This document shows, in pieces, positions 10,806 to 38,824 of a DNA stretch of 64,000 nucleotides. Numbering within the stretch: position 1 is the stretch's first letter; every line of letters begins with the position of its first letter. The position numbers and the translations under genes were made by a program. The notes below the pieces were generated by a model, which saw nothing but the letters and a program-made list of their open reading frames with translations, was not told where the DNA came from and ran no database searches. Source of the DNA: Escherichia coli (GTDB taxonomy: Bacteria; Pseudomonadota; Gammaproteobacteria; Enterobacterales; Enterobacteriaceae); the NCBI RefSeq assembly GCF_024298765.1, contig NZ_CP101210.1; one strand, 5' to 3'.

Positions 10806-10819
10806 ACCATTGCCATTTT

Positions 10820-12867: not shown

Positions 12868-12884
12868 ATTATTTATTCCTCGAC

Positions 12885-15056: not shown

Positions 15057-15067
15057 AGAATGTTATT

Positions 15068-15101
15068 ACTGATTTGAGTACAAATTCTCAAATCAGTAAT
15101 T
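15068..15101. terminator. perfect 13-bp inverted repeat hairpin between convergent genes
   Basis: ttactgatttgag-N8-ctcaaatcagtaa. Confidence 0.5.
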
Positions 15102-15125
15102 CATAATATTTTATTCTGAGATAAT

Positions 15126-15353
15126 TTAAACTACCCACTCACCTCGAATCCATGCCTGCACTTCTGAAAGACGATATGCAACAGCAGTGGAACCAATCTT
15201 GATCCGCTTAGGAAATTTTCCTTCCTTCTCCAGCTTCCAGCGTGTGCTGTTCGCAAGAGTGGTTAGCTCCCGACATTCTTTCTCACGGATCATTCGGTCA
15301 ATGTTAGGAATGTACTCCAGACCCTTTTTATCAACAATTGCCATTTTTTTCAT
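15126..15353 (-). CDS. alpA: AlpA-family regulator/excisionase-like protein
   Basis: ORF 15126..15362; ...LTTLANSTRWKLEKEGKFPKRIKIGSTAVAYRLSEVQAWI typical of AlpA; directly follows int. Confidence 0.65.
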   Translation of the reverse strand: MKKMAIVDKKGLEYIPNIDRMIREKECRELTTLANSTRWKLEKEGKFPKRIKIGSTAVAYRLSEVQAWIRGEWVV

Positions 15354-15354
15354 G

Positions 15355-16590
15355 TTAACCAACCTTTTGTTTGAGGATTGTCACTTTTGAATCAGCACCT
15401 GCGATGCTATTGAGATATGTAGTCCAGAGTTCCAGAGCATCCAGTTTTTTAGCCATAAACTTACTCCGGTTGTAAACACCTGCCACGCCAGGTAGCGCAT
15501 GGCCTAACAGTTGTTCTACTACATAAAATTCAACACCGAGATCACTTAGATGAGTAGATAGCGTTCTTCTAAGGTCGTGTAGTGACCATTGTTTTTCATG
15601 GCCCAAACGTTTACCGATTTTCCCCCCAATCTTGCTTACGCTTTCTCTAATTCGCAGACTTCCCAGCACATAACCAGTATGTTTTGTCTCTTCGTGAACA
15701 TCCGTTACCCACTGTCGTAGAATTTCAGGTACTGGTCTGACGATTTCAACACCAGTTTTTGAGTGATCTTTTGGTACAGTCCAAACCCAACTTTCGAGAT
15801 CCCATTCGCTCCATTCTGATAATCGGGCTTCACTCATTCGACATCCAAATACTGTACAAAGCACAAACATTTTTCGCGTGTATTCAGACATTAGTTTTAA
15901 ATCAGGCTCGACAAAAATTGCCTTCCAGAGCTGGCCGAGTTCGGCTTCATCCAGAACCCGATCCCGCTTACCTGCAATCTGCCCCACATCACTCATGCGC
16001 AAATCCTTTAAAGCATCACACGTCGCGTACTGGCGTACCCGACAAAAACGAAGAGCTAATTTAGTGTCAGAAAAAACATACGCCGCCATAACTGGTGCAT
16101 TACGTTTAATTCGGTCAAAACAGTCCAGCCATTCATATAGGTGAGTGTCATTTACGGGCAAATGACCGATATAGGGAAAGATATGCTTTCGAAATCTGCC
16201 AAGCGTTACAGCATGAGTTTTACGACGCACCTTACAGTAATTTTCATACCAGTAATTTAGTGCATCCTCCACTGTAACTGGCTTTAAGCGTTCTTCAGCC
16301 TGAATCTTAATCTGGATACGCGGATCACGTTTGTCAGCCAACCAACCACGGCACTCGTCGCGCTTTTCCCTTGCCTGTTTGAGTGACATATCAGGATATT
16401 TACCCAACGTTAGCCAGACCGGAGCAGCCCGGCCACCTGCTAACCTGTAGAAGAAAACAAAGCTCACAGCCCCTTTAGTACTCACACGAATAGAAAGCCC
16501 CTTTCCATCAGCAATGGTGATCTGCTTTTCTCTGGGTTTCCCCAGATATCCTTTAAGCGCTTTGTCGCTCAGTTTGTTCTCGCCAGCCAT
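15355..16590 (-). CDS. int: tyrosine integrase, P4-like
   Basis: ORF 15355..16641; probable start MAGENKLSDKALKG...; C-terminal catalytic region with HDLRRT and GH motifs. Confidence 0.85.
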   Translation of the reverse strand: MAGENKLSDKALKGYLGKPREKQITIADGKGLSIRVSTKGAVSFVFFYRLAGGRAAPVWLTLGKYPDMSLKQAREKRDECRGWLADKRDPRIQIKIQAEERLKPVTVEDALNYWYENYCKVRRKTHAVTLGRFRKHIFPYIGHLPVNDTHLYEWLDCFDRIKRNAPVMAAYVFSDTKLALRFCRVRQYATCDALKDLRMSDVGQIAGKRDRVLDEAELGQLWKAIFVEPDLKLMSEYTRKMFVLCTVFGCRMSEARLSEWSEWDLESWVWTVPKDHSKTGVEIVRPVPEILRQWVTDVHEETKHTGYVLGSLRIRESVSKIGGKIGKRLGHEKQWSLHDLRRTLSTHLSDLGVEFYVVEQLLGHALPGVAGVYNRSKFMAKKLDALELWTTYLNSIAGADSKVTILKQKVG

Positions 16591-16605
16591 TTTTAGCCCC
16601 AAAAA

Positions 16606-16640
16606 GCAATACAAGCTGCAATACAGAGATGATTGCAACA
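16606..16640. repeat. GCAATACA repeats near right end (candidate arm-type integrase sites)
   Basis: aagcaatacaagctgcaatacagagatgattgcaacaca between int start and the right junction. Confidence 0.45.
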
Positions 16641-16752
16641 CACAGATAACGAGGAAAATTCAGTGAAAGCACCAGATAAACTTATTCTTTATTATCAAAA
16701 GATTAAGTGTAAAAACCAGCAACTACACGAAAGCCTCAGAAAGCCATGCTAA

Positions 16753-16998
16753 GTGCTTGGGTTTGACATATCCCGGCGTAAATTCAGAGGTGGAGCCGCC
16801 ACGGGAACGGATAACCTCACCGGAAACAATCGGCGAAACGTACAGCGCCATGTTTACCAGTCCCGGAATTTGTGAGAGATAGACTTTCTCCGTAGTGAAG
16901 GGATAGCTCTCACGGAAAAAGAGACGCAGAAACAGCGGATCAAACTTAAATTTCTGCTCATTTGCCGCCAGCAGCTGGGCGGTTGTGTACATCGACAT
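16753..16998 (-). pseudogene. E: major capsid protein E, N-terminal ~90 codons; frame runs into the insertion and stops at 16723
   Basis: ORF 16723..17025: MSMYTTAQLLAANEQKFKFDPLF...GYVKPKH then LAWLSEAFV* from element DNA. Confidence 0.9.
16754..16763. repeat. right junction direct repeat (att core copy) TGCTTGGGTT
   Basis: Identical 10-mer at 5870..5879. Confidence 0.8.
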
Positions 16999-17053
16999 AA
17001 AAAAATCCCGTAAAAAAAGCCGCACAGGCGGCCTTTAGTGATGAAGGGTAAAG

Positions 17054-17386
17054 TTAAACGATGCTGATTGCCGTTCCGGCAAACGCGGTCCGTTTTTTCG
17101 TCTCGTCGCTGGCAGCCTCCGGCCAGAGCACATCCTCATAACGGAACGTGCCGGACTTGTAGAACGTCAGCGTGGTGCTGGTCTGGTCAGCATCAACCGC
17201 CAGAATGCCAACGGCAGCACCGTCGGTGGTGCCATCCCACGCAACCAGCTTACGGGTGGAGGTATCCAGCATCAGCGGGGTCATTGCAGGCGCTTTCGCA
17301 CTCAATCCGCCGGGCGCGGTTGCCGTATGTGCCGGGTCACTGTTGCCCAGCGGCTGGTAATGGGTAAAGGTTTCTTTGCTCGTCAT
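17054..17386 (-). CDS. D: head decoration protein D
   Basis: [31 protein letters not shown]..., lambda gpD. Confidence 0.9.
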
Positions 17387-17395
17387 AAACATCCC

Positions 17396-18695
17396 TTACA
17401 CTGGTGTGTTCAGCAAATCGTTAACGGCATCAGATGCCGGGTTACCTGCAGCCAGCGGTGCCGGTGCCCCCTGCATCAGACGATCCAGCGCAGTGTCACT
17501 GCGCGCCTGTGCACTCTGTGGTGCAGCTGCCAGAATGCGGCGGGCCGTTTCCACGGTCATACCGGGGGTTTCGGCCAGCACGCGTGCCTGTTCTTCGCGT
17601 CCGTGAGCCTCCTCACAGTTGAGGATCCCCATAATGCGACTGTTTTCTGCCGCAACCGCTGCGGTGATCTGCGCGTTCACGTCCGGCTGCGCCGCGCTGG
17701 CGTTCTCGCCCTCCGTCGCTTGCACCACGCCAGTAACGTCAGCCTGCGAAGCAGTGGCTGAAACAGTTGTTGATTGAGTCTCTTTGGTCATTCGCCCTCC
17801 TGAGAGACGGGATTTACGTGCATCCAGTGCATCACGCATGACGGTGATCGCATCGGTACTGTTAACAAGTTCATCAGCCAGTCCGGCATCAATGGCCTCC
17901 TGACCGCTGTACACTGCAGCCTCGGTATCCAGCACAGCCTGCACGGACAGGCCGGTATATGCCGACACCTTCTGTGCAAACATCTGGCGGGTTGCGTCCA
18001 TCCGGGACTGCAGTGTCTCCCGGACGTCATCCGGAAGATGGCTGTAGGGATTGCCATCCACCTTATGGCTGCCGCTGTAAATCAGCGTGATTTCCACACC
18101 CTGTTTCTCCAGGGCAGCACCGTAATTACTGTGAGCCATCATGACGCCGATGGAGCCTGTCCGGGCGGTCTGCGTGACCAGACGCCGGGAGGCGGCACTG
18201 GCAAGCAGCTGACCTGCACTGCAGTTCATGTCGTTGGCCAGCGCCCATACCGGTTTTATGTCACGCACACGGGCGATGATGTCAGCGCAGTCAAATGCCC
18301 CCGCCACCATTCCGCCTGGCGTGTCCATATCGAGCAGAATGCCGTCCACCATCGGGTCGCTGGCAGCCTGTTGCAGACGGGCGATAATGCCGTTGTAACC
18401 GGTCATCCCCGAGTACGGCTGCAGCGCCCGCGTCCGGCTGACCAGCGTGCCGGACACCGGCAGCACGGCGATGCCGTTCATGACCTGATAACTGCGGGCC
18501 TGTCGTGGTCCGTCATCATCACCGGATAATGCCAGCGTCGCGAGTGCCTCCTGGGCAGTCAGGCTGTCGCCGGACACCGCATCCGTCAGGCGGCTGATCC
18601 CAAGCTGGCCTGCAAGCGCACAAAAGAAAACCCGCGCATAGGCGGGTTCAAGCATCAGCGGCTCATTAAAGGCCATGCTGGCAATATGCGGGAGA

Positions 18696-18715
<20 letters not shown>
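17396..18715 (-). CDS. C: head maturation protease C (with nested scaffold Nu3 frame)
   Basis: ORF 17396..18850; start MTAELRNLPHIASMAFNEP... gives 439 aa like lambda gpC. Confidence 0.9.
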
Positions 18716-22396
<3,681 letters not shown>

Positions 22397-22422
<26 letters not shown>

Positions 22423-22942
22423 TCAGCAACCCCGGTATCAGTTCATCCAGCGCGGCTGCTTTGTTCATAGCTTTGATGATATCCCGTTTCAGGAAATCAA
22501 CATGTCGGTTTTCCAGTTCCGGAAAACGCCGCTGCACCGACAGGGGGATCCCGTCGAGAATACTGGCAATTTCACCTGCGATCCGCGACAGCACGAAAGT
22601 ACAGAATGCGGTTTCCACCACTTCAGCTGAGTCTCTGGCATTCTTCAGTTCCTGTGCGTCGGCCTGCGCACGCGTAAGTCGATGGCGTTCGTACTCAATA
22701 GTCCCTGGCTGCAGATCTGTCTCGCTGGCCTGCCGCAGTTCTTCAACTTCCCGGCGCAGCTTTTCGTTCTCAATTTCAGCATCCCTTTCGGCATACCATT
22801 TTATAACGGCGGCAGAGTCATAAAGCACCTCATTACCCTTGCCACCGCCTCGCAGAACGGGCATTCCCTGTTCCTGCCAGTTCTGAATGGTACGGATACT
22901 CGCACCGAAAATGTCAGCCAGCTGCTTTTTGTTGACTTCCAT
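22397..22942 (-). CDS. nu1: terminase small subunit Nu1
   Basis: 181 aa, matches lambda Nu1 as recalled. Confidence 0.95.
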
Positions 22943-22959
22943 TGTTCATTCCACGGCCA

Positions 22960-23150
22960 AAAACAGAGAAAGGAAACGACAAAGGCCCAAAAGTTCGTTT
23001 TCAGCACCTGTCGTTTCCTTTCTTTTCAGGGGTTATTTTAAATAAAAACATTAAGTTACGACGAAGAAGAACGGAAACACCTTAAACCGGAAAATTTTCA
23101 TAAATAGCAAAAACCCGCGAGGTCGCCGCCCCGTAACCTGTCGGATCGCC
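22960..23150 (-). other. prophage cos site (cosB R/IHF elements plus cosN); cohesive-end sequence GGGCGGCGACCT at about 23120..23131
   Basis: aaaacccgcgaggtcgccgccccgtaacctgtcggatcgcc is the reverse complement of lambda cosN with flanks as recalled. Confidence 0.85.
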
Positions 23151-23330
23151 GGAAAGGACCCGTAAAGTGATAATGATTATCATCTACATATCACAACGTG
23201 CGTGGAGGCCATCAAACCACGTCAAATAATCAATTATGACGCAGGTATCGTATTAATTGATCTGCATCAACTTAACGTAAAAACAACTTCAGACAATACA
23301 AATCAGCGACACTGAATACGGGGCAACCTC

Positions 23331-23525
23331 ATGTCAACGAAGAACAGAACCCGCAGAACAACAACCCGCAACATCCGCTTTCCTAACCAAATGATTGAAC
23401 AAATTAACATCGCTCTTGAGCAAAAAGGGTCCGGGAATTTCTCAGCCTGGGTCATTGAAGCCTGCCGTCGGAGACTAACGTCAGAAAAGAGAGCATATAC
23501 ATCAATCCAGAGTGATGATGAATAA
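23331..23525 (+). CDS. hypothetical protein (lambda orf64-like)
   Basis: 64-aa ORF between cos and bor, as in lambda. Confidence 0.6.
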   Translation: MSTKNRTRRTTTRNIRFPNQMIEQINIALEQKGSGNFSAWVIEACRRRLTSEKRAYTSIQSDDE

Positions 23526-23886
23526 ACATCCCGGTTTCTTCCACCATCGCACCGGAAAAGCGACTATGAGGGTAACCCTGCGTCTGTCAGCACAGTAAAA
23601 CCCGGTGTGCATCGTTTTTGATTATTCCCGCACACTCACGCAGAAGGAATTCCCCGTCGGGCTACGGTCATGGTTAATGCGGGAATACGGCGACGATACA
23701 GCGCAGCTAAAAGGGTAATGGACAGAAAGAGCGGTTTATTTCATTCCACAGGATTCTGAGTGCCCCCCCCTCCTCCAATAGGCTGAGCATCCACCTATAT
23801 AGTTTTAATTTTCATCAATCCATTTAACTATCGTTTAATTGTTGTCACATAGGATTCTGCCGTTTTTAACAATGCAGGATAATAAG

Positions 23887-24180
23887 ATGAAAAAAATGTT
23901 GTTTTCTGCCGCTCTGGCAATGCTTATTACAGGATGTGCTCAACAGACGTTTACTGTTGGAAACAAACCGACAGCAGTAACACCAAAGGAAACCATCACC
24001 CATCATTTCTTCGTTTCGGGAATTGGACAGGAGAAAACTGTTGATGCAGCCAAAATTTGTGGCGGCGCAGAAAATGTTGTTAAAACAGAAACCCAGCAAA
24101 CATTCGTAAATGGATTTCTCGGTTTTATTACTTTAGGCATTTATACTCCGCTGGAAGCGCGTGTGTATTGCTCACAATAA
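23887..24180 (+). CDS. bor: Bor lipoprotein (serum resistance)
   Basis: ORF 23839..24180; start MKKMLFSAALAMLITGCAQQTFTV... with lipobox; lambda Bor. Confidence 0.9.
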   Translation: MKKMLFSAALAMLITGCAQQTFTVGNKPTAVTPKETITHHFFVSGIGQEKTVDAAKICGGAENVVKTETQQTFVNGFLGFITLGIYTPLEARVYCSQ

Positions 24181-24211
24181 TTGCATGAGTTGCCCATAGA
24201 TATGGGCAGCT

Positions 24212-24673
24212 CTATCTGCACTGCTCATTAATATACTTCTGGGTTCCTTCCAGTTGTTTTTGCATAGTAATCAGCCTCTCTCTGAGGGTGAAATAATCCC
24301 GTTCAGCGGTGTCTGCCAGTCGGGGGGAGGCTGCATTATCCACGCCGGAGGCGGTGGTGGCTTCACGCACTGACTGACAGACTGCTTTGATGTGCAACCG
24401 ACGACGACCAGCGGCAACATCATCACGCAGAGCATCATTTTCAGCTTTCGCATCAGCTAACTCCTTCGTGTATTTTGCATCGAGCGCAGCAACATCACGC
24501 TGACGCATCTGCATGTCAGTAATTGCCGCGTTCGCCAGCTTCAGTTCTCTGGCATTTTTGTCGCGCTGGGCTTTGTAGGTAATGGCGTTATCACGGTAAT
24601 GATTAACAGCCCATGACAGGCCGACGATGATGCAGATAACCAGAGCGGAGATAATCGCGGTTACTCTGTTCAT
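24212..24673 (-). CDS. Rz: i-spanin Rz
   Basis: ORF 24212..24685; N-terminal TM helix then coiled coil; directly downstream of endolysin. Confidence 0.85.
24271..24453 (-). CDS. Rz1: o-spanin Rz1 lipoprotein, embedded in the +1 frame of Rz
   Basis: 60 aa with lipobox VVGCTS and proline-rich stretch [15 protein letters not shown]. Confidence 0.8.
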
Positions 24674-25167
24674 TGCTGACCCCACAAACAGATTTCACGC
24701 TCAATCTCACGACGAGTCATGAGACCTTTCCATTGCTTACCGCCAGCATATGTCCAGCGACGTAGCTGATCACATGCGCCTTTAATATCACCCTGGTTTA
24801 TTTTGCGAAGAAGCGTCGATGTTCTGAAATTGCCAGCACCCACGTTGTAGACGAACGAGTAAAGAGCGCCGCGCGTTGTTTCCGGTATATCGACTTTGAT
24901 GTACGGGTTAATTTGTCTGGCGACAGTGGCAAGGTCTTTATTCAGGAGGGCTTTGCACTCTGCTTCGGTATACGTTTTACCGGGAATGATGTCTTTTCCT
25001 GTATGCCCGTGACATACAGTCCATACACCAACTATGTCTTTGTAAGGATTATGTCTCACACCTTCCAGACCATCGTTACCACTTGGGCCAGTGATTAATA
25101 CAGATGCTATAGCAATAGCCCCGCCACCAATAGCAGCAGCAACAGCTTTTCGTAATGATGGAGGCAT
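24670..25167 (-). CDS. R: SAR endolysin (phage-21 R-type lysozyme)
   Basis: 165 aa; N-terminal Gly/Ala-rich signal-anchor-release segment then lysozyme domain; resembles DLP12 RrrD / R21. Confidence 0.85.
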
Positions 25168-25382
25168 TATCCACCTCTCGCAGCCTTGCGCTTATCTTCT
25201 TTAATCTTGAAATAAAGGTTTGTCAGGTACGTCAGCAGGCCAAATACCAGGCTACCCAGCACTCCAATTGCCGCCCACTGTGAGGGCGTGACTTTATCTA
25301 GCAGCTGTAAAAACCAGTACCCGGCACTACCTGCTGAGGTGCCATAGGCGACACCCGTTGTTAACTTATCCATGGATTTCAT
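25167..25382 (-). CDS. S: pinholin (S21-type class II holin)
   Basis: 71 aa; [20 protein letters not shown]...[35 protein letters not shown] closely parallels S21 / EssD. Confidence 0.85.
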
Positions 25383-25503
25383 AACCCCACCTCGCAGACA
25401 AAGCGGGTGTAAATTGAGGGAATACTACGAAACGTAACAGACTCGGAGTCAGTGAATAACTCAGGTATTGGGTTATCAGCTAATATCGAGACTCAAAAAA
25501 TGG

Positions 25504-25527
25504 AAAAACCCGCTCGACGGCGGGTTT
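25504..25527 (-). terminator. rho-independent terminator upstream of the lysis cassette (tR'-like)
   Basis: Minus strand aaacccgccgtcgagcgggttttt. Confidence 0.5.
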
Positions 25528-25954
25528 AAGCTGTGTGACGAAGTAACCACTCTTAACAGCATAACCAATTTTTTACGTACGTAAACCACTAAATGATATT
25601 TGCGAGAATGCTACCGAGTATTGAAAACACCACTACAAATACATAAGCAAATCTCAACAAATAACCAACAAATAATTTCCAGTGTTATTTTTAGCTGGTT
25701 TAAATTGAACCTTCAAATTATAGAGCACTTATAAATAACAGCCGTTAATATAAATTGGCTAACAGATTTATTTTTATTCAGCCAAGAGCCATGAATAGGA
25801 TTCGATAGAAAAAAGTTCAGATAAAAATAGAGATCTACTTCACAAATCAAACGAGAAACCAAAACTTACATCTTGAAATAATCACATTGATTAGATGAAT
25901 ATTTATCGCGCAGTGACATCATTTTTTAATAATAGTTCAAAAAAAGGGCTCACG

Positions 25955-27052
25955 ATGAAAAAATTAACAGTGGCAATTTCTGCTGTAGCTGCATCAGTAC
26001 TGATGGCGATGTCTGCTCAGGCAGCTGAAATTTATAATAAAGACAGTAACAAGCTGGATCTGTACGGGAAAGTTAATGCTAAGCACTACTTCTCCTCTAA
26101 TGATGCAGATGATGGTGATACTACTTATGCCCGTCTTGGCTTCAAAGGTGAAACCCAAATCAACGATCAACTGACTGGTTTCGGTCAGTGGGAATATGAA
26201 TTCAAAGGCAACCGCGCTGAATCTCAAGGTTCCTCCAAAGATAAAACCCGTCTTGCCTTCGCTGGCCTGAAATTCGGTGACTACGGCTCCATCGATTACG
26301 GCCGTAACTACGGTGTAGCATACGACATCGGTGCGTGGACTGACGTCCTGCCAGAATTCGGTGGTGACACTTGGACTCAAACCGACGTGTTCATGACTCA
26401 ACGTGCAACTGGTGTTGCAACCTATCGTAACAACGACTTCTTTGGTCTGGTTGATGGTCTGAATTTTGCTGCTCAGTACCAAGGCAAAAACGATCGTAGC
26501 GATTTCGATAACTACACTGAAGGTAACGGTGATGGCTTCGGTTTCTCTGCTACCTATGAATACGAAGGATTCGGTATCGGTGCAACTTATGCGAAATCTG
26601 ATCGTACCGACACTCAAGTTAATGCAGGGAAAGTTCTTCCTGAAGTATTTGCTTCCGGTAAAAATGCAGAAGTTTGGGCCGCAGGTCTGAAATATGACGC
26701 TAACAACATTTACCTGGCCACTACCTATTCTGAAACCCAGAATATGACTGTATTTGCTGATCACTTCGTTGCTAATAAAGCCCAAAACTTCGAAGCTGTT
26801 GCACAATATCAGTTCGATTTCGGTCTGCGTCCGTCCGTTGCTTACCTGCAATCTAAAGGTAAGGATCTTGGAGTATGGGGCGATCAGGACTTAGTCAAAT
26901 ATGTTGATGTAGGTGCAACCTATTACTTCAACAAAAATATGTCTACTTTCGTTGATTACAAAATCAACCTGCTTGACAAAAATGACTTCACTAAAGCACT
27001 CGGTGTAAGCACTGATGACATCGTTGCTGTAGGTCTGGTTTACCAGTTCTAA
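25955..27052 (+). CDS. outer-membrane porin, OmpC/NmpC/Lc family (lysogenic-conversion gene)
   Basis: ORF 25895..27052; start [23 protein letters not shown] signal peptide; [17 protein letters not shown]... and C-terminal VGLVYQF typical of general porins; sits between Q and S on the opposite strand as in DLP12/PA-2. Confidence 0.9.
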
Positions 27053-27189
27053 TCTGATTACGAAAAAGATATGTTGCGGGAGGCGTTGCCTCCCCAACAT
27101 ATAAGTGGCTCCCTCAAGCCACTTCCTTTAGAAGCACAACCTTGCTTCTAACTATATAAACCTTCTGTTATATATTACCCTTTATTTTT

Positions 27190-27215
27190 GGGGGCGTCTC
27201 AACGCCCCATTTTTA
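27190..27215 (+). terminator. rho-independent terminator after porin gene
   Basis: gggggcgtctcaacgcccc followed by attttt. Confidence 0.6.
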
Positions 27216-27241
27216 ATAATTTTTAGTAAACAATTGGCATA

Positions 27242-27640
27242 TTAATTAGAGTTATTAACAACGATATCCATCTCTAACCGGATATCTAATGCCATTAACA
27301 TCCCTTCAATTATACCCTCAGCCTTCTGTAACCTTTTCCCGATATAACCATCAGAGCAGCAATGCTTACCTGCCAGTGACATGAATGTCATACCGACTAC
27401 ATAATAATCTACTAATAAATCGTGCAAATCGCTGTTGTTCTTTTTCAGACGGGCCATGCACCCGCAAATGATCATCGCGTCATCGTCACAACATTGCGGG
27501 CGAGATTTTACTTTTGAAGTAATTAATCCCTTAAAACCGGCGGCAATGGACGACCAGGTCACATCTTCATGATTATTAGCCGCCCACGCTCCCCAACGCT
27601 CAAGAACCATCTGAATATCACGCATCAACTTACTCCACAA
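27242..27640 (-). CDS. Q: late antiterminator Q (phage-82 / DLP12 QuuD type)
   Basis: 132 aa; closely resembles DLP12 QuuD as recalled; Cys-rich putative zinc site; upstream of the lysis genes. Confidence 0.8.
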
Positions 27641-27847
27641 AAATCAGACCAGAACGCCAATTACAAGCAAAAATCAACAAAACAGTATTAGTTGATTGTT
27701 ATCTCTGACTTCATACTCCTGCTCCTGTCAGGGTTTTGGCGTAATTCTTCAGTATTCGGTAATCGGTCAAAACAGAACCGGGGAAACGATATAAGCGCAG
27801 ACGCCCCCAGCGGTGGCGAAGAAGTTCTGCCATATTAAACTCAAACA

Positions 27848-28210
27848 TCATTCATTCCCCATTTCGGTGATGGTCAGTTCCAGCCTCCCACCTTTGGTAA
27901 CAGGCATCTTCACAACGCGGTAATCAACGACCTGAGCATCATCCAGCCAGAAACCTGCTTTGGTGAGTGCGTCAAAAGAGGCTTTTTGCAGATTATCCAG
28001 GTCACGGCGACGGCGATCCGGCATGTGGCACTCAATGCGGATTTTCACAGGCATAGCCAGGCCGATATCCAGCATTGCGTTTTTAATGATTCGGGCGACG
28101 TTATCGCAGTATGCCTGCCCCTCTGCGCTAACGTGCGTGCGCCCGCGATTATGGCGGTAATAGCGATTATTGCTCGGAGGCCAGGGTAATGTGATGCTGT
28201 AGGTATTCAC
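27848..28210 (-). CDS. rusA: Holliday junction resolvase RusA
   Basis: 120 aa [34 protein letters not shown]..., RusA family. Confidence 0.9.
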
Positions 28211-28229
28211 GCCTTAATAACCCCCTCTT

Positions 28230-28424
28230 TCAGCCAGATAACCTGTGTTCTCGCCATACCTTCCAGCGCGCATTCTTTTGCATATGCAGCATCGACTTGC
28301 TTGGCATGCCCTTTACCGGCAATCTTCTGTATGCGCTAAACCTAGATAGAATCCACTCTGTGCACATTGAAGCCCGCTCTATGCTTCCTTTCAGGTATTG
28401 AAGGGATTGAGATGGGCTAAGCAT
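28230..28424 (-). CDS. NinF-like ORF, N-terminus conserved, remainder divergent (possible remnant)
   Basis: [18 protein letters not shown]... matches start of lambda NinF as recalled, then loses the Cys-rich motif. Confidence 0.35.
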
Positions 28425-28800
28425 TATTGGCCTCCTGCATCAGGAGAAAGACAATCATGGCGGCGCGGAGAGGTCTGGCATCAAATATTGGGCTTACGCC
28501 TTTTGCATCCACACACCATTCAGTTAACTGGTCTAAGATAGAAATCCTGTATTTCTCAATAATCGGCCATGAAGCGCTCGGATCATTGCAGTAGTCAGGC
28601 AAATGATTTAATGGCTCAAAAGTTGTATCAGCATTTCCGTAATACCATTTGTTGGTGTTATTCCCTGATGTTTCCGGTTTACTTGCCCAAAGGCCTTTAA
28701 AAATTATGTCTCCTACCATTCTGTTAATTTCAAAATCACTTAACTGTGAATAATCCATTGTCATTTCCTCGCACGATATCTTAGCCACCGGATATCCCAC
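28417..28800 (-). CDS. nin-region hypothetical protein
   Basis: 127-aa ORF in the nin operon on the same strand as its neighbours; family not recognised. Confidence 0.5.
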
Positions 28801-28937
28801 AGGTGAGCTGTGTAATTGAAGGTTTTTACGTCAGATTCTTTTGGGATTGGCTTGCGTTTATTTCTGGAGCGTTTCGTTGGAAGGTATTTGCAGTTTTCGC
28901 AGATGATGTCGGTGAAACTTCGTCGCTGTCGCCTCAT
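28761..28937 (-). CDS. ninE: NinE
   Basis: ORF 28761..29027; internal start [58 protein letters not shown] matches lambda NinE. Confidence 0.8.
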
Positions 28938-29461
28938 GCCGCCCTCCTGACGCCCTGCCCGATCGCCATCAATGCCGCTTTGGATACGGTAGTAAACATC
29001 CGTCGAGGACTGATGAACGGTCGCCAAATCAGCAGCATGGAGCCTTTGCTGTTTCCCTTCTTCTCCAGCCCTGTCGATGGTTCGATAAAATTAATCCGTC
29101 CATCAGTGATAATGCGAACTTCGTCGACACTCTCCAGAGCCTTGCTGAACCATCCGACTGACATATCCTCTGGCACAAGCATAACTACCGTCTGTCGCTG
29201 TTGTATGCACTGCTCAGCGGCTTTTTCCACCCACGGCCTGATATTGCTGTACGGTGGGTTATTCCAGATTGCACCGTGGCTTACCCACTCAGAATTGAGC
29301 GCGTCGTCGGCCTCAGTTAGCCAGTGAGCACACAGAGCATTTTTGTCGCTCGCTGCAGAATCCAGCCAGAATCCAAACTCAATATCCAGTGCATCAAAAA
29401 GCCAAAGCGGCGTTTGCCAGCAGTCCTTGTCGTGTGCTGGCGTATTTGATTTGATAGTCAT
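28934..29461 (-). CDS. phage DNA N6-adenine methyltransferase (orphan)
   Basis: ORF 28934..29521; probable start [25 protein letters not shown]...; NPPY catalytic motif. Confidence 0.75.
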
Positions 29462-29898
29462 GCAGCCCGATCTCCCCATCTCGCTTTCCACTCCAGAGCC
29501 AGTCTCGCTTCGTCTGACCACTTAACGCCACGCTCTGTACCGAATGCCTGTATAAGCTCTAATAGCTCCGCAAATTCGCCTACACGCATCCTGCTGGTTG
29601 ACTGGCCTATTACCACAAAGCCATTCCCGGCAAGGTTAGGAACAACATCCTGCTGCTTTAATGCTGCGGTAAACACACACTTCCAGCTTTCTGCATCCAG
29701 CCAGCGACCATGCCATTCAACCTGACGAGAGACGTCACCTAAGCAGGCCCATAGCTTCCTGTTTTGGTCTAAGCTGCGGTTGCGTTCCTGAATGGTTACT
29801 ACGATTGGTTTGGTTGGGTCTGGAAGGATTTGCTGTACTGCGTGAATAGCGTTTTGCTGATGTGCTGGAGATCGAATTTCAAAGGTTAGTTTTTTCAT
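29458..29898 (-). CDS. ninB: NinB (Orf-family recombination mediator)
   Basis: ORF 29458..29916; start MKKLTFEIRSPAHQQNAIHAVQQILPDPTKP..., lambda NinB. Confidence 0.9.
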   Translation of the reverse strand: MKKLTFEIRSPAHQQNAIHAVQQILPDPTKPIVVTIQERNRSLDQNRKLWACLGDVSRQVEWHGRWLDAESWKCVFTAALKQQDVVPNLAGNGFVVIGQSTSRMRVGEFAELLELIQAFGTERGVKWSDEARLALEWKARWGDRAA

Positions 29899-29971
29899 GA
29901 CTTCCCTCTCCCCCAAATAAAAAGGCCTGCGATTACCAGCAGGCCTGTTATTAGCTCAGTGATGTAGATGG

Positions 29972-30262
29972 TCATCTTTTAACTCCATATACCGCCAATA
30001 CCCGTTTCATCGCGGCACTCTGGCGACACTCCTTAAAAATCAGGTTCGTGCTCATCTTTCCTTCCCGTTCTTCCTTGGTAGCAAACCGGTAATACACCGT
30101 TCGCCAGACCTTACCTTCGATAACCAGAAGACCTGCCCGTGCCATTTTAGCCGCGGCCTGATTTATGCTGGTTACTGTTGCGCCTGTTAGCGCGGCAACG
30201 TCCGGCGCACAGAAGCTATTATGCGTCCCCAGGTAATGAATAATTGCCTCTTTGCCCGTCAT
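29972..30262 (-). CDS. ren: Ren
   Basis: 96 aa MTGKEAIIHYLGTHNSFCAPDVAALTGATVTSINQ..., lambda Ren. Confidence 0.9.
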   Translation of the reverse strand: MTGKEAIIHYLGTHNSFCAPDVAALTGATVTSINQAAAKMARAGLLVIEGKVWRTVYYRFATKEEREGKMSTNLIFKECRQSAAMKRVLAVYGVKR

Positions 30263-30960
30263 ACACTTGCTCCTTTCAGTCCGAACTTAGCTTTGATTTC
30301 TGCGATCTTCGCCAGAGCCTGTGCACGATTTAGAGGTCTACCGCCCATGACAGGAAGTTGTTTTACTGGTTCAGGGATCGCCTCACCACGGTTAATTCTC
30401 GCAGTCATATGGACAAGCTCATCTGCGGCCTTACGGCGTAATTCCGCATCAGTAAGCGCATTGGCCCGCATGTTCTGATACAGGTTGGTAACCAGCCAGT
30501 AGTGCGCGTTTGATTTCCACGGATAAGACTCCGCATCCGGATACAGGCCTCGCTTCCGGCAATACTCGTAAACCATATCAACCAGCTCGCTGACGTTTGG
30601 CAGTCCGGCGATAACGGATGCTTCTTCCCGGCACCATGCAACAAACTGCCCGGGTGATGGCAGAAATGGTCGATTCTGCCGACGGGCTACGCGCATTCCT
30701 GCGTTAACCTGTTCCATTGTGGTGATCCCGTTTTCCCGGAAAGCCAGCACCCACTGGCGGCGGATTTCGTTCAGTTCGTTCTGGTCCCGGTTAGCCAGGC
30801 TCGCCGGGAAAGTTGCCAGTAACTGGCTGAACACACCATTGATGATCTGCGCTACCTGTTGTACCTGCGGCTTTTCGTCGTACTGTTCCGGCATGTTGTT
30901 GGCGATCCGACGCATCTGCTCACGGTCAAAGTTAACCATCTGTGCGGCGATGTTTTTCAT
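30259..30960 (-). CDS. P: replication protein P (DnaB loader)
   Basis: 233 aa MKNIAAQMVNFDREQMRRIANNMPEQYDEK..., lambda P. Confidence 0.95.
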   Translation of the reverse strand: MKNIAAQMVNFDREQMRRIANNMPEQYDEKPQVQQVAQIINGVFSQLLATFPASLANRDQNELNEIRRQWVLAFRENGITTMEQVNAGMRVARRQNRPFLPSPGQFVAWCREEASVIAGLPNVSELVDMVYEYCRKRGLYPDAESYPWKSNAHYWLVTNLYQNMRANALTDAELRRKAADELVHMTARINRGEAIPEPVKQLPVMGGRPLNRAQALAKIAEIKAKFGLKGASV

Positions 30961-31856
30961 AAATCCACCCCGTAAATCCAGTCAGTGTTTGTCAGGTCGA
31001 GTTTTGGTTTGCTGGCTGTCACGCCTGCCTGTTGCTTGTTACGGTTGATTTCGAGCTGGGTCCACTTGTCGCGGAGTTTGGCCGGACTCAGCACGTTACC
31101 GGACCAGAAGTTGTCCTGGCAGGCCCAGCGGAAAAGCACACACATATCGCGGTGGTTACGTCCGTCACGTTCACGCATCAGGCGGATATCGTTAGCCCAC
31201 CCAGCAAAATTCGGTTTTCTGGCTGATGGTGCGATAGTCTTCACCATGTCAAACATCCACTCTGCGGCGGTCAGGTCTTCTGCTGTCCCCCACTTGCTGC
31301 CGCTCTGAATTGCAGCATCCGGTTTAACCACAGAAAGATCGTTTTCTGGCTGGTCAGAGGATTCGCCAGAATTCTCTGACGAATAATCTTTTCTTTTTTC
31401 TTTTGTAATAGTGTCTTTTGTGTCCCCCTGTTTTGAGGGATAGCAATCCCCCAATTTGAGGGATGTTTTATCCCTCGTTTTAGGGGATTGTCCCTCGTTT
31501 TGAGGGATACACCATTCTGAGATGTTTTTATTTGGTCCAAACATGCCGCCTTGCTGCTTGATAATATTCATTCTGACGAGTTCTAACTTGGCTTCATTGC
31601 ACCGTTTGACAGGTAACTTTGTAATCTCGCTAAGTTGAGAATCGGTGATTCTGTCCATTGGTTTATTCCACCCATAGGTTTTACGCAGAATGGCAAGCAG
31701 CACTTTAAACTGTCGCTTGGTCAGATCTGCGCCCGAATAAGCCTCAAGCAGCATATTTGATAGTCTGGCGTAACCATCATCGAGATCTGCCACATTACGC
31801 TCCTGTCCGGCAAAGTTACCTCTGCCGAAGTTGAGTATTTTTGCTGTATTTGTCAT
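30957..31856 (-). CDS. O: replication initiator O
   Basis: 299 aa MTNTAKILNFGRGNFAGQERNVADLDDGYARLSNMLLEAY..., lambda O. Confidence 0.95.
   Translation of the reverse strand: MTNTAKILNFGRGNFAGQERNVADLDDGYARLSNMLLEAYSGADLTKRQFKVLLAILRKTYGWNKPMDRITDSQLSEITKLPVKRCNEAKLELVRMNIIKQQGGMFGPNKNISEWCIPQNEGQSPKTRDKTSLKLGDCYPSKQGDTKDTITKEKRKDYSSENSGESSDQPENDLSVVKPDAAIQSGSKWGTAEDLTAAEWMFDMVKTIAPSARKPNFAGWANDIRLMRERDGRNHRDMCVLFRWACQDNFWSGNVLSPAKLRDKWTQLEINRNKQQAGVTASKPKLDLTNTDWIYGVDL
31425..31520 (-). repeat. ori-lambda iterons inside gene O
   Basis: Four ~19-bp repeats tccctcaaaacgaggga / tcccctaaaacgaggga / tccctcaaattggggga variants, followed by an AT-rich tract. Confidence 0.85.
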
Positions 31857-31888
31857 AATGACTCCTGTTGATAGATCCAGTAATGACC

Positions 31889-32182
31889 TCAGAACTCCAT
31901 CTGGATTTGTTCAGAACGCTCGGTTGCCGCCGGGCGTTTTTTATTGGTGAGAATCGCAGCAACTTGTCGCGCCAATCGAGCCATGTCGTCGTCAACGACC
32001 CCCCATTCAAGAACAGCAAGCAGCATTGAGAACTTGGGAATCCAGTCTCTCTTCCACCTGCTGATCTGCGACTTATCAACTCCCACAGCTTCCGCTGTCT
32101 TCTCAGTTCCAAGCATTGCGATTTTGTTAAGCAACGCACTCTCGATTCGTAGTGCCTCGTTGCGTTTGTTTGCACGAACCAT
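31889..32182 (-). CDS. cII: transcriptional activator CII
   Basis: ORF 31889..32242; start MVRANKRNEALRIESALLNKIAMLGTEK... gives 97 aa, lambda CII. Confidence 0.95.
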   Translation of the reverse strand: MVRANKRNEALRIESALLNKIAMLGTEKTAEAVGVDKSQISRWKRDWIPKFSMLLAVLEWGVVDDDMARLARQVAAILTNKKRPAATERSEQIQMEF

Positions 32183-32257
32183 ATGTAAGTATTTCCTTAG
32201 ATAACAATTGATTGAATGTATGCAAATAAATGCATACACCATAGGTGTGGTTTAATT

Positions 32258-32275
32258 GGATGCCCTTTTTCAGGG
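32258..32275 (-). promoter_or_regulatory. nutR boxB hairpin
   Basis: Minus strand gccctgaaaaagggc between cro and cII. Confidence 0.7.
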
Positions 32276-32300
32276 CGGGGATGGGTAAGAGCGGGGTTAT

Positions 32301-33315
<1,015 letters not shown>

Positions 33316-33442
33316 TAGGAAGTAAGTTTTATGTTGACGGCACAGTCAACTTGGCATAGATTAATTAAACCAAGCCCAGCCCCGTTCGCAGACAATTGTT
33401 AATATCTGCATAACGGCTCTGGGCTATTTTTTTGGGACTCTT

Positions 33443-34300
33443 ATGAAGAAAGCAGCAATTTTAATTGATGCGGGTTTTTTCATGCAGCGTGTTCATGCTA
33501 CGCATCGTAAACACTTCGCCGAGCATGAACTGACTGCGCAATGCATAATGAAAGTAATATGGTCAATGGTTCTTTCCCATCTTAATGGAAAACGTCAATC
33601 ACAAGAACGTAGGGAACCGCTTGAGCTTTATAGAATTTACTTCTATGACTGTCCACCACTCGACATTCAAACACGCCTTCCACTTCCTGAGCCTGGCAAT
33701 AAGACGCCTGGTCGCAAGAATTTCAAACTCGAAAAATCATATATTCTGAGAACGGAGCTGCATGAAGAGTTAAGAAAAACTCGAAAAACAGCCTTAAGAT
33801 TAGGGAATCTTGTTGATAATAAGCGATGGCAACTAACTACATTCTCCCTTGATGCTCTGATGAAAGGAACGAAAAAATGGGATGAACTGACAAATGATGA
33901 TTTTTACTATGACATCAAACAAAAACAAGTTGATATCAAGCTAGGGATGGATATCACGACTTTAGCTTATGAAAAACTTGTTGATGTAATTGTCCTTGTT
34001 GCTGGGGACTCAGACTTTGTGCCTGCCGCCAAACACGCCAGAATTAAAGGTATTGATTTTATTCTTGATCCACTAAGACAGAATGTTACCCCATCACTGT
34101 CAGAGCACATTGATGGAGTTCAGTCATACAGCTTGATATCAGGACTTGCCGATGCTTTACATGTTGAGCCAGACCCGGCACCTGACTGGTGGGAAGATCG
34201 AAAAAAAGGCAAGCCTAGGGGAAAAAACAATAGCGGTAAACGCAGGTATGGAAACACTCAAGCTGAGTCTGCAAAGAAACATCAAAGAAATAAACGATAA
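33443..34300 (+). CDS. NYN-domain (LabA-like, PIN-like) putative nuclease occupying the rexA-rexB position
   Basis: 285 aa; MKKAAILIDAGFF... and VIVLVAGDSDFVPA motifs typical of NYN domains; basic C-terminal tail; downstream of cI on the same strand; not similar to RexA or RexB. Confidence 0.6.
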   Translation: MKKAAILIDAGFFMQRVHATHRKHFAEHELTAQCIMKVIWSMVLSHLNGKRQSQERREPLELYRIYFYDCPPLDIQTRLPLPEPGNKTPGRKNFKLEKSYILRTELHEELRKTRKTALRLGNLVDNKRWQLTTFSLDALMKGTKKWDELTNDDFYYDIKQKQVDIKLGMDITTLAYEKLVDVIVLVAGDSDFVPAAKHARIKGIDFILDPLRQNVTPSLSEHIDGVQSYSLISGLADALHVEPDPAPDWWEDRKKGKPRGKNNSGKRRYGNTQAESAKKHQRNKR

Positions 34301-34308
34301 TCCCATCA

Positions 34309-34336
34309 ACCCGGCCACCGAGCCGGGTTTTCTTTG
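34309..34336 (+). terminator. rho-independent terminator after the cI-NYN operon
   Basis: cccggccaccgagccgggttttctttg. Confidence 0.6.
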
Positions 34337-34479
34337 CCTCACGATCGCCCCACCTAAAAACACATAACCAATTGTATTTATTTTAAAATTAATAGGTGCA
34401 ACTCACTAAACAACGCAATTCTGATCTCTCGATCACCTCCCAAGCCACACAACCCTGCAAAAAATAAATCTATATAAAA

Positions 34480-34560
34480 AACATACAGATAACCATCTGC
34501 GGTGATAAATTATCTCTGGCGGTGTTGACACAAATACCACTAGCGGTGATACTAAACACA
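34480..34560 (+). promoter_or_regulatory. oL operators and pL promoter
   Basis: catctgcggtgataaa, tatctctggcggtgttgaca, taccactagcggtgatact arranged as in lambda pL. Confidence 0.8.
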
Positions 34561-34606
34561 CCAGCAGGACGCACTAACCCACATGAAGGTGATGCTCTTA
34601 AAAATT

Positions 34607-34623
34607 AAGCCCTGAAGAAGGGC
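34607..34623 (+). promoter_or_regulatory. nutL boxB hairpin
   Basis: gccctgaagaagggc upstream of N. Confidence 0.75.
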
Positions 34624-34781
34624 AGCATTCAAAGCAGAAGGCTTTGGGGTGTGTGATACGAAACGAAACATTGGCCGGAAGTGCGAATCCGGATTAGCTG
34701 CAAATGAGCCAATCGTGGGGTGTTTTCGTTCAGGACTACGACTCCCACACACCACCAAAGCTAACTGACAAGAGAATCCAG

Positions 34782-35679
<898 letters not shown>

Positions 35680-35848
35680 TTAAAAGACAGGCATACTAAT
35701 AAACACTGCACTGTGTATTTATTCCAACGAGTGAATACACGGAGCAATGTCGCTCGTAACTAAACAGGAGCCGACTTGTTCTGATTATTGGAAATCTTCT
35801 TTGCCCTCCAGTGTGAGGGCGATTTTTTATCTATGAGGATATGAATAG

Positions 35849-36217
35849 GTGTCAAACATCAAAAAATACATCATTGATTACGACTGGAAAGCATCAATAG
35901 AAATTGAAATCGACCATGACGTAATGACAGAGGAAAAACTTCACCAGATTAATAATTTCTGGTCAGACTCTGAATACCGACTCAATAAACACGGCTCTGT
36001 ATTAAATGCTGTATTAATCATGCTGGCGCAACATGCTCTGCTTATAGCAATTTCAAGCGACTTAAATGCATATGGTGTTGTGTGTGAGTTCGACTGGAAT
36101 GATGGAAATGGTCAGGAAGGATGGCCTCCAATGGATGGTAGCGAAGGAATAAGAATTACCGATATCGATACATCAGGAATATTTGATTCAGATGATATGG
36201 CTATCAAGGCCGCCTGA
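35849..36217 (+). CDS. ea10: Ea10-like early protein
   Basis: 122 aa, GTG start with GAGGA RBS; position between N and cIII as lambda ea10. Confidence 0.6.
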   Translation: MSNIKKYIIDYDWKASIEIEIDHDVMTEEKLHQINNFWSDSEYRLNKHGSVLNAVLIMLAQHALLIAISSDLNAYGVVCEFDWNDGNGQEGWPPMDGSEGIRITDIDTSGIFDSDDMAIKAA

Positions 36218-36289
36218 GTGCGGCTTTACCGCATACCAATAACGCTTCACTCGAGGCGTTTTTCGTTATGTATAAATAAGGAGCACACC

Positions 36290-36430
36290 ATGCAATATGC
36301 CATTGCAGGGTGGCCTGTTGCTGGCTGCCCTTCCGAATCTTTACTTGAACGAATCACCCGTAAATTACGTGACGGATGGAAACGCCTTATCGACATACTT
36401 AATCAGCCAGGAGTACCCAAAAATGGATAA
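36290..36430 (+). CDS. cIII: CIII (FtsH inhibitor), apparently 8 codons shorter than lambda CIII
   Basis: [46 protein letters not shown] then stop, inside ORF 36218..36430. Confidence 0.8.
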   Translation: MQYAIAGWPVAGCPSESLLERITRKLRDGWKRLIDILNQPGVPKNG

Positions 36431-36566
36431 AAAACTTATGGCTATCCAGACAAAATTCACTATTGCCACTTTTATTGGCGATGAAAAGATGTTTCGTGAG
36501 GCCGTCGACGCTTATAAAAAATGGATATTAATACTGAAACTGAGATCAAGCAAAAGCATTCACTAA
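36423..36566 (+). CDS. kil: Kil
   Basis: [47 protein letters not shown], lambda Kil with two substitutions near the N-terminus. Confidence 0.8.
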
Positions 36567-36937
36567 CCCCCTTTCCTGTTTTCCTAATCAGCCCGGCATT
36601 TCGCGGGCGATATTTTCACAGCTATTTCAGGAGTTCGGCCATGAACGCTTATTACATTCAGGATCGTCTTGAGGCTCAGAGCTGGGCGCGTCACTACCAG
36701 CAGATAGCCCGTGAAGAGAAAGAGGCAGAACTGGCAGACGACATGGAAAAAGGCCTGCCCCAGCACCTGTTTGAATCGCTATGCATCGATCATTTGCAAC
36801 GCCACGGGGCCAGCAAAAAAGCCATTACCCGTGCGTTTGATGACGATGTTGAGTTTCAGGAGCGCATGGCAGAACACATCCGGTACATGGTTGAAACCAT
36901 TGCTCACCATCAGGTTGATATTGATTCAGAGGTATAA
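36521..36937 (+). CDS. gam: Gam (RecBCD inhibitor)
   Basis: 138 aa [55 protein letters not shown]..., lambda Gam. Confidence 0.95.
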
Positions 36938-36942
36938 AACGG

Positions 36943-37728
36943 ATGAGTACAGCACTCGCAACGCTGGCAGGGAAGCTGGCTGAACGTGTCGGCATGGATT
37001 CTGTCGACCCACAGGAACTGATCACCACTCTTCGCCAGACGGCATTTAAAGGCGATGCCAGCGATGCGCAGTTCATCGCATTGTTGATCGTCGCCAACCA
37101 GTACGGCCTTAATCCGTGGACGAAAGAAATTTACGCCTTCCCTGACAAGCAGAACGGCATCGTTCCGGTGGTGGGCGTTGATGGCTGGTCCCGTATCATC
37201 AATGAAAACCAGCAGTTTGATGGCATGGACTTTGAGCAGGACAATGAATCATGTACATGCCGGATTTACCGCAAGGACCGTAATCATCCGATCTGCGTTA
37301 CCGAGTGGATGGATGAATGCCGCCGCGAACCATTCAAAACCCGCGAAGGCAGAGAAATCACCGGACCGTGGCAGTCGCATCCCAAACGGATGTTACGGCA
37401 TAAAGCCATGATTCAGTGTGCCCGTCTGGCCTTCGGATTTGCTGGTATCTATGACAAGGATGAAGCCGAGCGCATTGTCGAAAATACCGCATACACTGCA
37501 GAACGTCCGCCGGAACGCGACATCACTCCGGTTAACGATGAAACCATGCAGGAGATTAACACTATGCTGATTGCCCTGGACAAAACATGGGATGACGACT
37601 TATTGCCGCTCTGTTCCCAGATATTTCGCCGCGACATTCGCGCATCGTCAGAACTGACACAGGCCGAAGCAATGAAAGCTCTTGGATTCCTGAAACAGAA
37701 AGCCTCTGAACAGAAGGTGGCTGCATGA
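36943..37728 (+). CDS. bet: Bet (Red-beta single-strand annealing protein)
   Basis: 261 aa [38 protein letters not shown]..., lambda Bet. Confidence 0.95.
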
Positions 37729-38405: not shown

Positions 38406-38584
38406 CGCATCCTCACGATAATATCCGGGTAGGCGCGATCACTTTCGTCTACTCCATTACAAAGCGAGGCTGGGTATTTCCCGGCCTTTCTGTTATCAGA
38501 AATCCCCTGAAAGCACAGCGGCTGGCTGAGGAGATAAATAATAAACGGGGAGCTGTATGCACAAAGCATCTCCCGTTGAGTTAA
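38396..38584 (+). CDS. orf60a-like hypothetical protein
   Basis: [54 protein letters not shown]... Confidence 0.7.
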
Positions 38585-38748: not shown

Positions 38749-38824
38749 CAACCACTGAATGCATTTTTCTGGCAGCGGGCTTCATATTCTGTGTGCTTAT
38801 GCTTGCCGACATGGGGCTTGTTCA

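Follow-up and report, generated by a model that had tools for sequence, protein, structure and literature searches.

The porin gene analyzed here lies on the plus strand at 25955..27052 of the window, i.e., the whole 64,000-nucleotide stretch of Escherichia coli DNA that was analyzed. Its reading frame starts with an ATG at 25955, ends with a TAA at 27052 and consists of 365 codons plus the stop codon, giving a protein of 365 amino acids. The original prediction had proposed an intact porin gene at exactly this position and on this strand, and this proposal is borne out: neither a frameshift nor an internal stop codon was found in 25955..27052, and the matches of the protein to known porins are far beyond chance. 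An in-frame ATG is located upstream at 25895 and would give a 385-aa form, which is the start used in the mechanical ORF list. We use the 365-aa form because its ATG is preceded by a Shine-Dalgarno sequence (AAGGG, 25944..25948 on the plus strand, read from the sequence and ending 6 nt before the ATG) and because this form is the one annotated in phage PA-2 (J02580) and in RefSeq (WP_000737280.1). Based on the reading frame, the Pfam match and the identity to NmpC and Lc, this feature is an intact nmpC (lc), the long-known prophage gene for an outer membrane pore.

The protein matches the Pfam family Porin_1 (PF00267) over the entire profile (positions 1-337 of 337; E = 4.7e-157; 523.1 bits versus a cutoff of 23.7). 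The sequences of 48 solved enterobacterial porins match residues 24-365 with E <= 1e-109; the solved OmpC, OmpK36, OmpF, and PhoE chains align with few gaps from end to end (E = 1e-137 to 1e-109), suggesting at the sequence level that NmpC has the 16-strand beta-barrel fold. Residues 1-23 (25955..26023, plus strand) form a cleavable Sec signal peptide with an A-x-A end, cleaved before AEIYNK, that is identical to the signal peptide annotated for Lc (J02580, sig_peptide 1492..1560), and the mature chains of the solved OmpC, OmpF, and PhoE structures start aligning at residue 24 of NmpC. Together with the full-length Porin_1 match, this agrees with the predicted porin of the OmpC/NmpC/Lc type with a signal peptide. 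In a six-porin alignment, the PEFGG motif and the acidic residues of the constriction loop L3 are kept, and the TD..PEFGGD segment is invariant. K39, R60, R117, and R150 also lie in invariant columns, while R99 is conserved in five of the six porins and replaced by H in PA-2 Lc; we take these five residues to correspond to the pore residues known from the OmpF structure. NmpC ends in GLVYQF, of which YQF is invariant in the same alignment, and has the C-terminal Phe, i.e., the aromatic residue required for outer membrane assembly. The differences among the six porins are concentrated in blocks of insertions and deletions, which by analogy probably represent surface loops.

nmpC is flanked by phage genes on the opposite strand. 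On one side lies the gene for a Q antiterminator of the QuuD type (27242..27640, minus strand; PF06530, E = 4e-53), which is annotated in RefSeq as quuD at 27242..27625 (127 aa; 21843..22226 of the identical chromosome) and whose product is 78-81 % identical to Q of phages 933W and H-19B. On the other side lies a lysis cassette on the minus strand (24212..25382), which comprises genes for a holin of the phage 21 type (S21; 25167..25382, PF04971), a lysozyme (SAR-endolysin; 24670..25167, PF00959), Rz (24212..24685, PF03245), and, embedded in Rz, Rz1 (24271..24453, from the ORF list). It is followed by a gene for a Bor/Iss lipoprotein on the plus strand (23887..24180) and by Nu1 and terminase A on the minus strand (20497..22942). 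As had been predicted, the porin gene is antiparallel between Q and S, and the order of the lambdoid late module is Q - nmpC - S21 - R21 - Rz/Rz1 - bor. A chromosome that is 99.85 % identical to the window over 7540..47300 carries a lambda-like prophage beside ybhC, the att-lambda position, and the genes of the prophage include int, xis, exo, bet, gam, kil, cIII, N, cI, cro, cII, O, P, ren, and the nin genes. The genes for the tail fibre (stf) and J lie outside the window. Altogether, we conclude with high confidence that the window contains an intact nmpC (lc) allele encoding the general-diffusion porin of a lambdoid late module, and that this module is part of a lambda-like prophage at att-lambda beside ybhC. 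Thereby, the prophage carries two conversion genes, nmpC and iss/bor.

For the comparison with K-12, NmpC was rebuilt in silico by removing IS5 and its 4-bp target duplication. The IS5-free NmpC of the DLP12 (qsr') prophage is identical to the protein of the window in 365 of 365 residues, and the two genes are identical in 1096 of 1098 nt. In the actual K-12 copy, IS5 is inserted after codon 346, and the final 19 residues, among them the C-terminal Phe, are replaced as a result; phage 434B has the same IS5-disrupted allele. This disruption is absent from the uninterrupted copy of the window, in line with the prediction that the gene is intact here and IS-disrupted in DLP12. The neighboring genes are the same in DLP12 (quuD, essD, rrrD, rzpD/rzoD, and borD); however, DLP12 lies at argU and is heavily decayed, whereas the prophage of the window occupies att-lambda and has retained a complete early region, the late regulator, the lysis cassette, and head genes. 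PA-2 Lc (protein 2; J02580) has the same length and signal peptide as the protein of the window and is identical to it in 361 of 365 residues without gaps. The four substitutions (R99H, Q149G, A151T, and V154F) may in part be sequencing differences dating from 1986. At the nucleotide level, PA-2 is 97.7 % identical to the window across 1.85 kb, a stretch that contains the two annotated CRP sites, and has a 16-nt insertion far upstream of lc; lc has the same antiparallel position beside the lysis genes. The window is colinear with PA-2 (95.8 % over 2.8 kb), DLP12 (96.8-99.3 %) and 434B (97.6-98.1 %), and the predicted parallel to the Lc porin of PA-2 and the nmpC of DLP12 extends to the whole order Q - antiparallel porin - S - R - Rz - bor, which is shared at 96-99 % nucleotide identity. 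An intact porin gene is also found in the Q-proximal slot of the temperate coliphages mEp332, Chlobot, Kati, PhiR26_1, PhiR29_1, ev243, ev099, and others (88-99 % nucleotide identity). These sequenced coliphages show that viable phages carry an intact porin gene; their genes are allelic variants that are inconsistently annotated as OmpD, OmpC, NmpC, or hypothetical.

The chromosomal porins OmpC, OmpF, and PhoE belong to the same family as NmpC and share its architecture, including the signal peptide, the PEFGG motif, the pore charges, and the YQF end; they differ from it in their insertion and deletion blocks and in their location, NmpC being encoded in a prophage. The identity of NmpC to the K-12 proteins is 66 % for OmpC, 65 % for PhoE, and 62 % for OmpF, while a porin encoded by a prophage remnant in strain CFT073 is 91 % identical to it. 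Among the NCBIfam models, the protein exceeds the cutoff of the OmpC-subfamily model (529.8 bits versus 484) and remains below the cutoffs of the equivalog models for PhoE (502 versus 599) and OmpF (474 versus 583). On the basis of the OmpC-subfamily score, and because the RefSeq pipeline PGAP calls alleles that are 85-88 % identical "ompC: porin OmpC", the gene could be read as the chromosomal ompC or a duplicate thereof. However, the NCBIfam match is to a model at the level of the subfamily only, the protein is only 66 % identical to K-12 OmpC and 99-100 % identical to Lc and NmpC, and the locus is part of a prophage, where it is found between Q and S and not beside micF and rcsD. We, therefore, reject a chromosomal OmpC orthologue based on the prophage context and the identity figures and assign this reading next to no probability. 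The alignment to NmpC, Lc, and OmpC that had been suggested along with the prediction thus places the gene with the prophage porins; the correct name is nmpC (lc allele), intact, and the names ompC and "hypothetical" are wrong.

Regulation of nmpC is expected to depend on the 572 nt between the holin gene start and the nmpC start (25383..25954, plus strand), which have a GC content of 31-36 % and, by identity to K-12, contain the nmpC promoter. An upstream alignment of 578 nt has four differences from K-12, none of them within the promoter-proximal ~200 nt. Two CRP sites are annotated in PA-2 and were transferred by alignment: a distal site (CTGTGTGACGAAGTAACCACT; J02580 feature 1067..1087) at 25531..25551 on the plus strand and a proximal site (containing AGAGATCTACTTCACA; J02580 feature 1363..1383) at 25827..25847 on the minus strand. 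Both are kept base for base in the window, which makes them candidate CRP sites here. The proximal site has two mismatches to the consensus, and across the window, matches of this quality are as frequent as expected by chance; because of this, the CRP sites are assigned on the basis of the PA-2 annotation and published work. In the classical work on PA-2, lc was reportedly subject to catabolite repression. NmpC control is reportedly CRP-dependent, in contrast to the classical control of OmpC, OmpF, and PhoE by EnvZ/OmpR, MicF/MicC, or Pho. A sigma-70 consensus scan upstream of nmpC found no promoter and, therefore, the placement of the promoter follows the K-12 literature. In K-12, PnmpC is a sigma-70 promoter, the nmpC-IS5 transcript of which was recovered by 5' RACE, and CRP has been described as its activator and OmpR, IHF, and MprA as its repressors (PMC11677980).

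At the posttranscriptional level, the small RNA RybB targets nmpC mRNA in E. coli (PMC3333887). Using the K-12 sequence of RybB, we identified CAGTGGC in codons 5-7 of nmpC (25968..25974, plus strand) as a perfect complement of RybB nt 1-7 (GCCACTG) and infer from this complementarity that RybB may pair at this site. In a duplex calculation, the energy of the RybB-nmpC duplex was only ~2 SD better than that of shuffles, with a long loop in the structure. RybB control is shared with OmpD of Salmonella enterica, for which NmpC has been treated as the E. coli counterpart (PMC3333887; PMC2808357); OmpD is encoded on the chromosome, whereas NmpC of the window is encoded in a prophage.

The 189-nt spacer between nmpC and Q (27053..27241) shows no difference between the window, K-12, PA-2, and phage 434B (100 % identity) and folds into five hairpins with an MFE of -67.5 kcal/mol (z = -7.8 on the plus strand and z = -5.3 on the minus strand). 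Based on a terminator scan and the fold, an intrinsic terminator for nmpC (GGGGCGTCTCAACGCCCC followed by ATTTTTAAT) is present on the plus strand at 27191..27217. It consists of the most distal of the hairpins (27191..27208) and a T-run, is located 139 nt past the nmpC stop codon, and ends 25 nt before the stop codon of Q. Folding of both strands identified a 15-bp bulged hairpin followed by CUUUUUCG at 27061..27102 on the minus strand; this hairpin (27069..27102), just after the nmpC stop codon, has a U-run on the minus strand only and none on the plus strand. We infer that it is a tR'-like terminator of leftward (late) transcription outside the nmpC stop codon. Thus, the prediction that nmpC has its own terminator stands insofar as a plus strand terminator exists; it needs amending in that this terminator is at a distance from the stop codon and that the spacer holds two convergent terminators. 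A further intrinsic terminator on the minus strand (AAACCCGCCGTCGAGCGGGTTT followed by TTCCATTTTT, 25506..25527) lies upstream of the holin gene.

Instead of merely holding two terminators back to back, the spacer could also function as a regulatory device. According to this idea, a pR' promoter in the spacer would give rise to a constitutive short transcript that ends at the hairpin outside the nmpC stop codon and is fully antisense to the nmpC 3'UTR; this transcript would either affect the stability of nmpC mRNA or act in trans, and upon induction, Q-dependent read-through would switch off the porin by antisense transcription. A pR'-derived sRNA of Stx phages, StxS, has reportedly been found to act in trans. 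In searching for pR' on the minus strand, a relaxed sigma-70 scan gave TTGAGA-N19-TAATAT as the sole match, and an alignment of the region downstream of Q revealed no homology to the annotated pR'/qut/terminator of 933W or to H-19B. A search of 25300..27700 against Rfam identified no RNA family, only Trp_leader and snoRNA matches at chance level. We consider a regulatory device in the spacer quite improbable.

The plus strand terminator and the AT-rich upstream region, together with the finding that different cargo follows the related Q of Stx phages, are features of a moron, and the promoter activity behind this assignment comes from K-12 (PMC11677980). These features suggest that nmpC is an autonomous transcription unit that is expressed from the repressed prophage. 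The Stx phages 933W and H-19B, which carry stx genes and tRNAs in the same cargo slot after a related Q, provide a comparison; this slot is also a lysogenic-conversion locus in these phages. However, stx has the same orientation as the late operon and is expressed by Q antitermination upon induction, whereas nmpC is antiparallel with its own promoter and would, therefore, be expressed in the lysogen. In the lysogen, the convergent terminators in the spacer would keep nmpC, which is transcribed against the late operon, and the late operon separate; after induction, RNA polymerase modified by Q would read nmpC antisense on its way to the lysis genes.

Whether an intact nmpC is also active has to be weighed against the possibility that it is silent, i.e., a quiescent porin gene that does not ordinarily contribute to the outer membrane and is a passive passenger of the Q-S module. 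The intact nmpC of E. coli B is called a "quiescent porin gene" in the title of Prilipov et al. 1998, as that title is cited in PMC3333887; the GC content of the upstream region is of the kind usually seen in foreign DNA silenced by H-NS; the K-12 promoter has been listed with several repressors, i.e., OmpR, IHF, and MprA (PMC11677980); and the empty sigma-70 scan is also in line with silence. However, the same promoter gives the nmpC-IS5 transcript that is detectable in K-12 by 5' RACE (PMC11677980), and expression of homologous nmpC genes from prophages is known from other strains: nmpC of the Perceval prophage in LF82 is transcribed 10-fold above the local background in the lysogen (PMC9928086), and in CFT073, two nmpC genes are strongly upregulated at 37 C at the level of mRNA and protein (PMC12890032). 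Moreover, the coding sequence has only two nucleotide changes and no amino acid change compared with that of K-12, an unrelated strain, arguing for either purifying selection or very recent spread. We, therefore, regard a silent gene as unlikely and favor that the intact nmpC is expressed.

If expressed, the nmpC product would be exported via Sec, and the BAM complex would assemble it into a trimeric pore of the 16-strand type, which would add to or partly replace OmpC and OmpF in the outer membrane and, consequently, change permeability and the display of porin receptors. A role in lysogenic conversion is established knowledge for Lc/NmpC and, by analogy, may be assumed for the gene of the window. 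In the classical conversion by PA-2, a new major outer membrane protein is said to appear together with a reduction in OmpC and poorer adsorption of an OmpC-dependent phage. Specifically, Schnaitman and co-workers reportedly found that PA-2 lysogens make Lc ("protein 2") and have reduced OmpC and OmpF, and that OmpC is the PA-2 receptor. These reports open the possibility that phage defense is the main function under selection, with NmpC replacing OmpC and OmpF such that OmpC-dependent phages, including those of the prophage's own kind, adsorb poorly, while the change in nutrient permeability of the host is secondary. Along these lines, Highton et al. 1985 are credited, in PMC5381585, with the speculation that phage porins block superinfection by repressing OmpC-like receptors, and the insertion and deletion blocks relative to OmpC, OmpF, and PhoE would, by analogy, be the surface loops that phages recognize. 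Against this idea, J and stf, from which the receptor of the prophage would be read, lie beyond the window; the BASEL screen gave no nmpC-dependent phage phenotype, but its K-12 host has the disrupted gene; and other phenotypes have been connected with NmpC, i.e., heat resistance, which PMC12890032 cites as resulting from NmpC overexpression, and thermoregulated expression in a uropathogen. We, therefore, treat phage defense as a tentative explanation that has some merit and is still clearly more doubtful than probable.

More generally, a general porin encoded by a prophage can alter the permeability for nutrients and antibiotics, the receptors for phages and colicins, and surface antigens, and NmpC has been connected with resistance to heat and with expression depending on temperature in pathogenic E. 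coli. The 1.9-kb locus is matched in 4043 of the 5426 complete E. coli genomes and the nmpC coding sequence in 3885 of the 5426; for both, the matches cover >= 80 % of the query in 2464 genomes. In 1457 records, the best match of the coding sequence is >= 95 % identical, and at least 25 chromosomes, many of them from chickens or avian-pathogenic E. coli (APEC), carry a 100 % identical copy of the 1.9-kb locus. A sample spread over the matches contains three classes of alleles, i.e., near-identical full-length alleles, K-12-type alleles truncated at nt 1040, and the full-length alleles of 85-88 % identity that PGAP labels "ompC". In addition, 43 phage records carry the gene, including mEp332, Chlobot, Kati, the PhiR series, and the ev series. 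Because intact copies are very common, the intact state of the gene in the window is not remarkable; uninterrupted nmpC genes between Q and S occur frequently and have been described before, and the identification here is annotation and not discovery.

Separately from the porin locus, we observed that a 10.9-kb element splits the prophage's gene E for the major capsid protein, making the inducibility of the prophage uncertain. The element carries genes for an integrase, AlpA, a D5-type primase, SSB, an E-like capsid protein and a D-like decoration protein of its own, and a Nu1-type small terminase, as well as a copy of the cos region and a DUF2971 cargo gene, and its junctions at 5870..5879 and 16754..16763 have the common 10-bp core AACCCAAGCA. 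A helper-embedded PICI, "11capE", with the site E:Phage_cap_E:80 and a 10-bp identity block has been described (PMC10111431), and the element matches this PICI. We, therefore, rejected the idea that the 10.9-kb island is something new, given that this type of helper-embedded PICI is published (PMC10111431). The cargo end of the element varies between strains, with DUF262 plus HEPN in one strain and an Abi-family protein in another.

The spacer between Q and nmpC (27053..27241) is unusually structured, with five hairpins (z = -7.8) and convergent terminators, and its sequence is invariant in all four sources, i.e. the window, K-12, PA-2, and phage 434B. The late promoter pR' for the Q type in the window was sought and not located, and the spacer region has no homology to the pR' region of the Stx phages 933W or H-19B. 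Upstream of the holin gene, an intrinsic terminator on the minus strand (25527..25506) lies directly adjacent to the distal CRP site as annotated for lc (25531..25551). Because the terminator abuts the annotated CRP site, we speculate that this short segment (25506..25551) may serve both transcription units.

In the sequenced 434B isolate (OL657227), the stretch 2208..5799 of L002, the 434B record, holds a K-12-type nmpC::IS5 allele, and this allele falls in a block annotated 'region of 434 nonhomology'. Together, these observations suggest that 434B acquired the DLP12 Q-nmpC-S module through recombination in K-12, a case that illustrates the mobility of this module. Nmp-type alleles with 85-88 % nucleotide identity to nmpC of the window are named 'ompC: porin OmpC' by PGAP in E. 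coli RefSeq genomes (rows H61-H75 in a spread sample of matches to the nmpC coding sequence), and they sit away from the ompC locus. For example, one such allele, in CFT073 (2501..3583 of locus L009), adjoins ybcM, ybcL, and emrE, surroundings that look like a DLP12-like remnant. Thus labeled, Nmp-type alleles can mislead porin inventories.

Just past the lysis cassette, the nmpC-carrying prophage has a second conversion gene, Bor/iss, which encodes a Bor-family lipoprotein (PF06291; 23887..24180, plus strand). A gene identical to it is named iss (increased serum survival) in RefSeq, and many of the identical loci are from avian-pathogenic E. coli.

Gene E, which encodes the prophage's major capsid protein, is split into two pieces on the minus strand (5089..5865 and 16754..16999) by a 10.9-kb satellite (5870..16763). 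Because the 10-bp repeat AACCCAAGCA (the satellite cores) is present on both sides of the satellite (5870..5879 and 16754..16763), precise excision would restore E. The satellite encodes an integrase, AlpA, a D5-type primase, and SSB; it also has E-like capsid and D-like decoration genes of its own, and a Nu1-type small terminase accompanied by a copy of the cos region. It corresponds to a type of helper-embedded PICI already described, '11capE', with the site E:Phage_cap_E:80 (PMC10111431). Of 5426 complete E. coli genomes, 47 contain at least 80 % of the satellite. The cargo gene at its variable end encodes a DUF2971 protein (6014..6919, plus strand); the same position is occupied by DUF262 and HEPN genes in strain 104 and by a gene for an 'abortive infection family protein' in STEC711. 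The presence of different cargo genes at one position suggests that the variable end is a swappable anti-phage cargo slot.

The sole above-threshold Rfam match in the window is Lambda_thermo, the cIII thermoregulator element (36277..36335, plus strand), with a score of 88.5 bits where the gathering score is 50.
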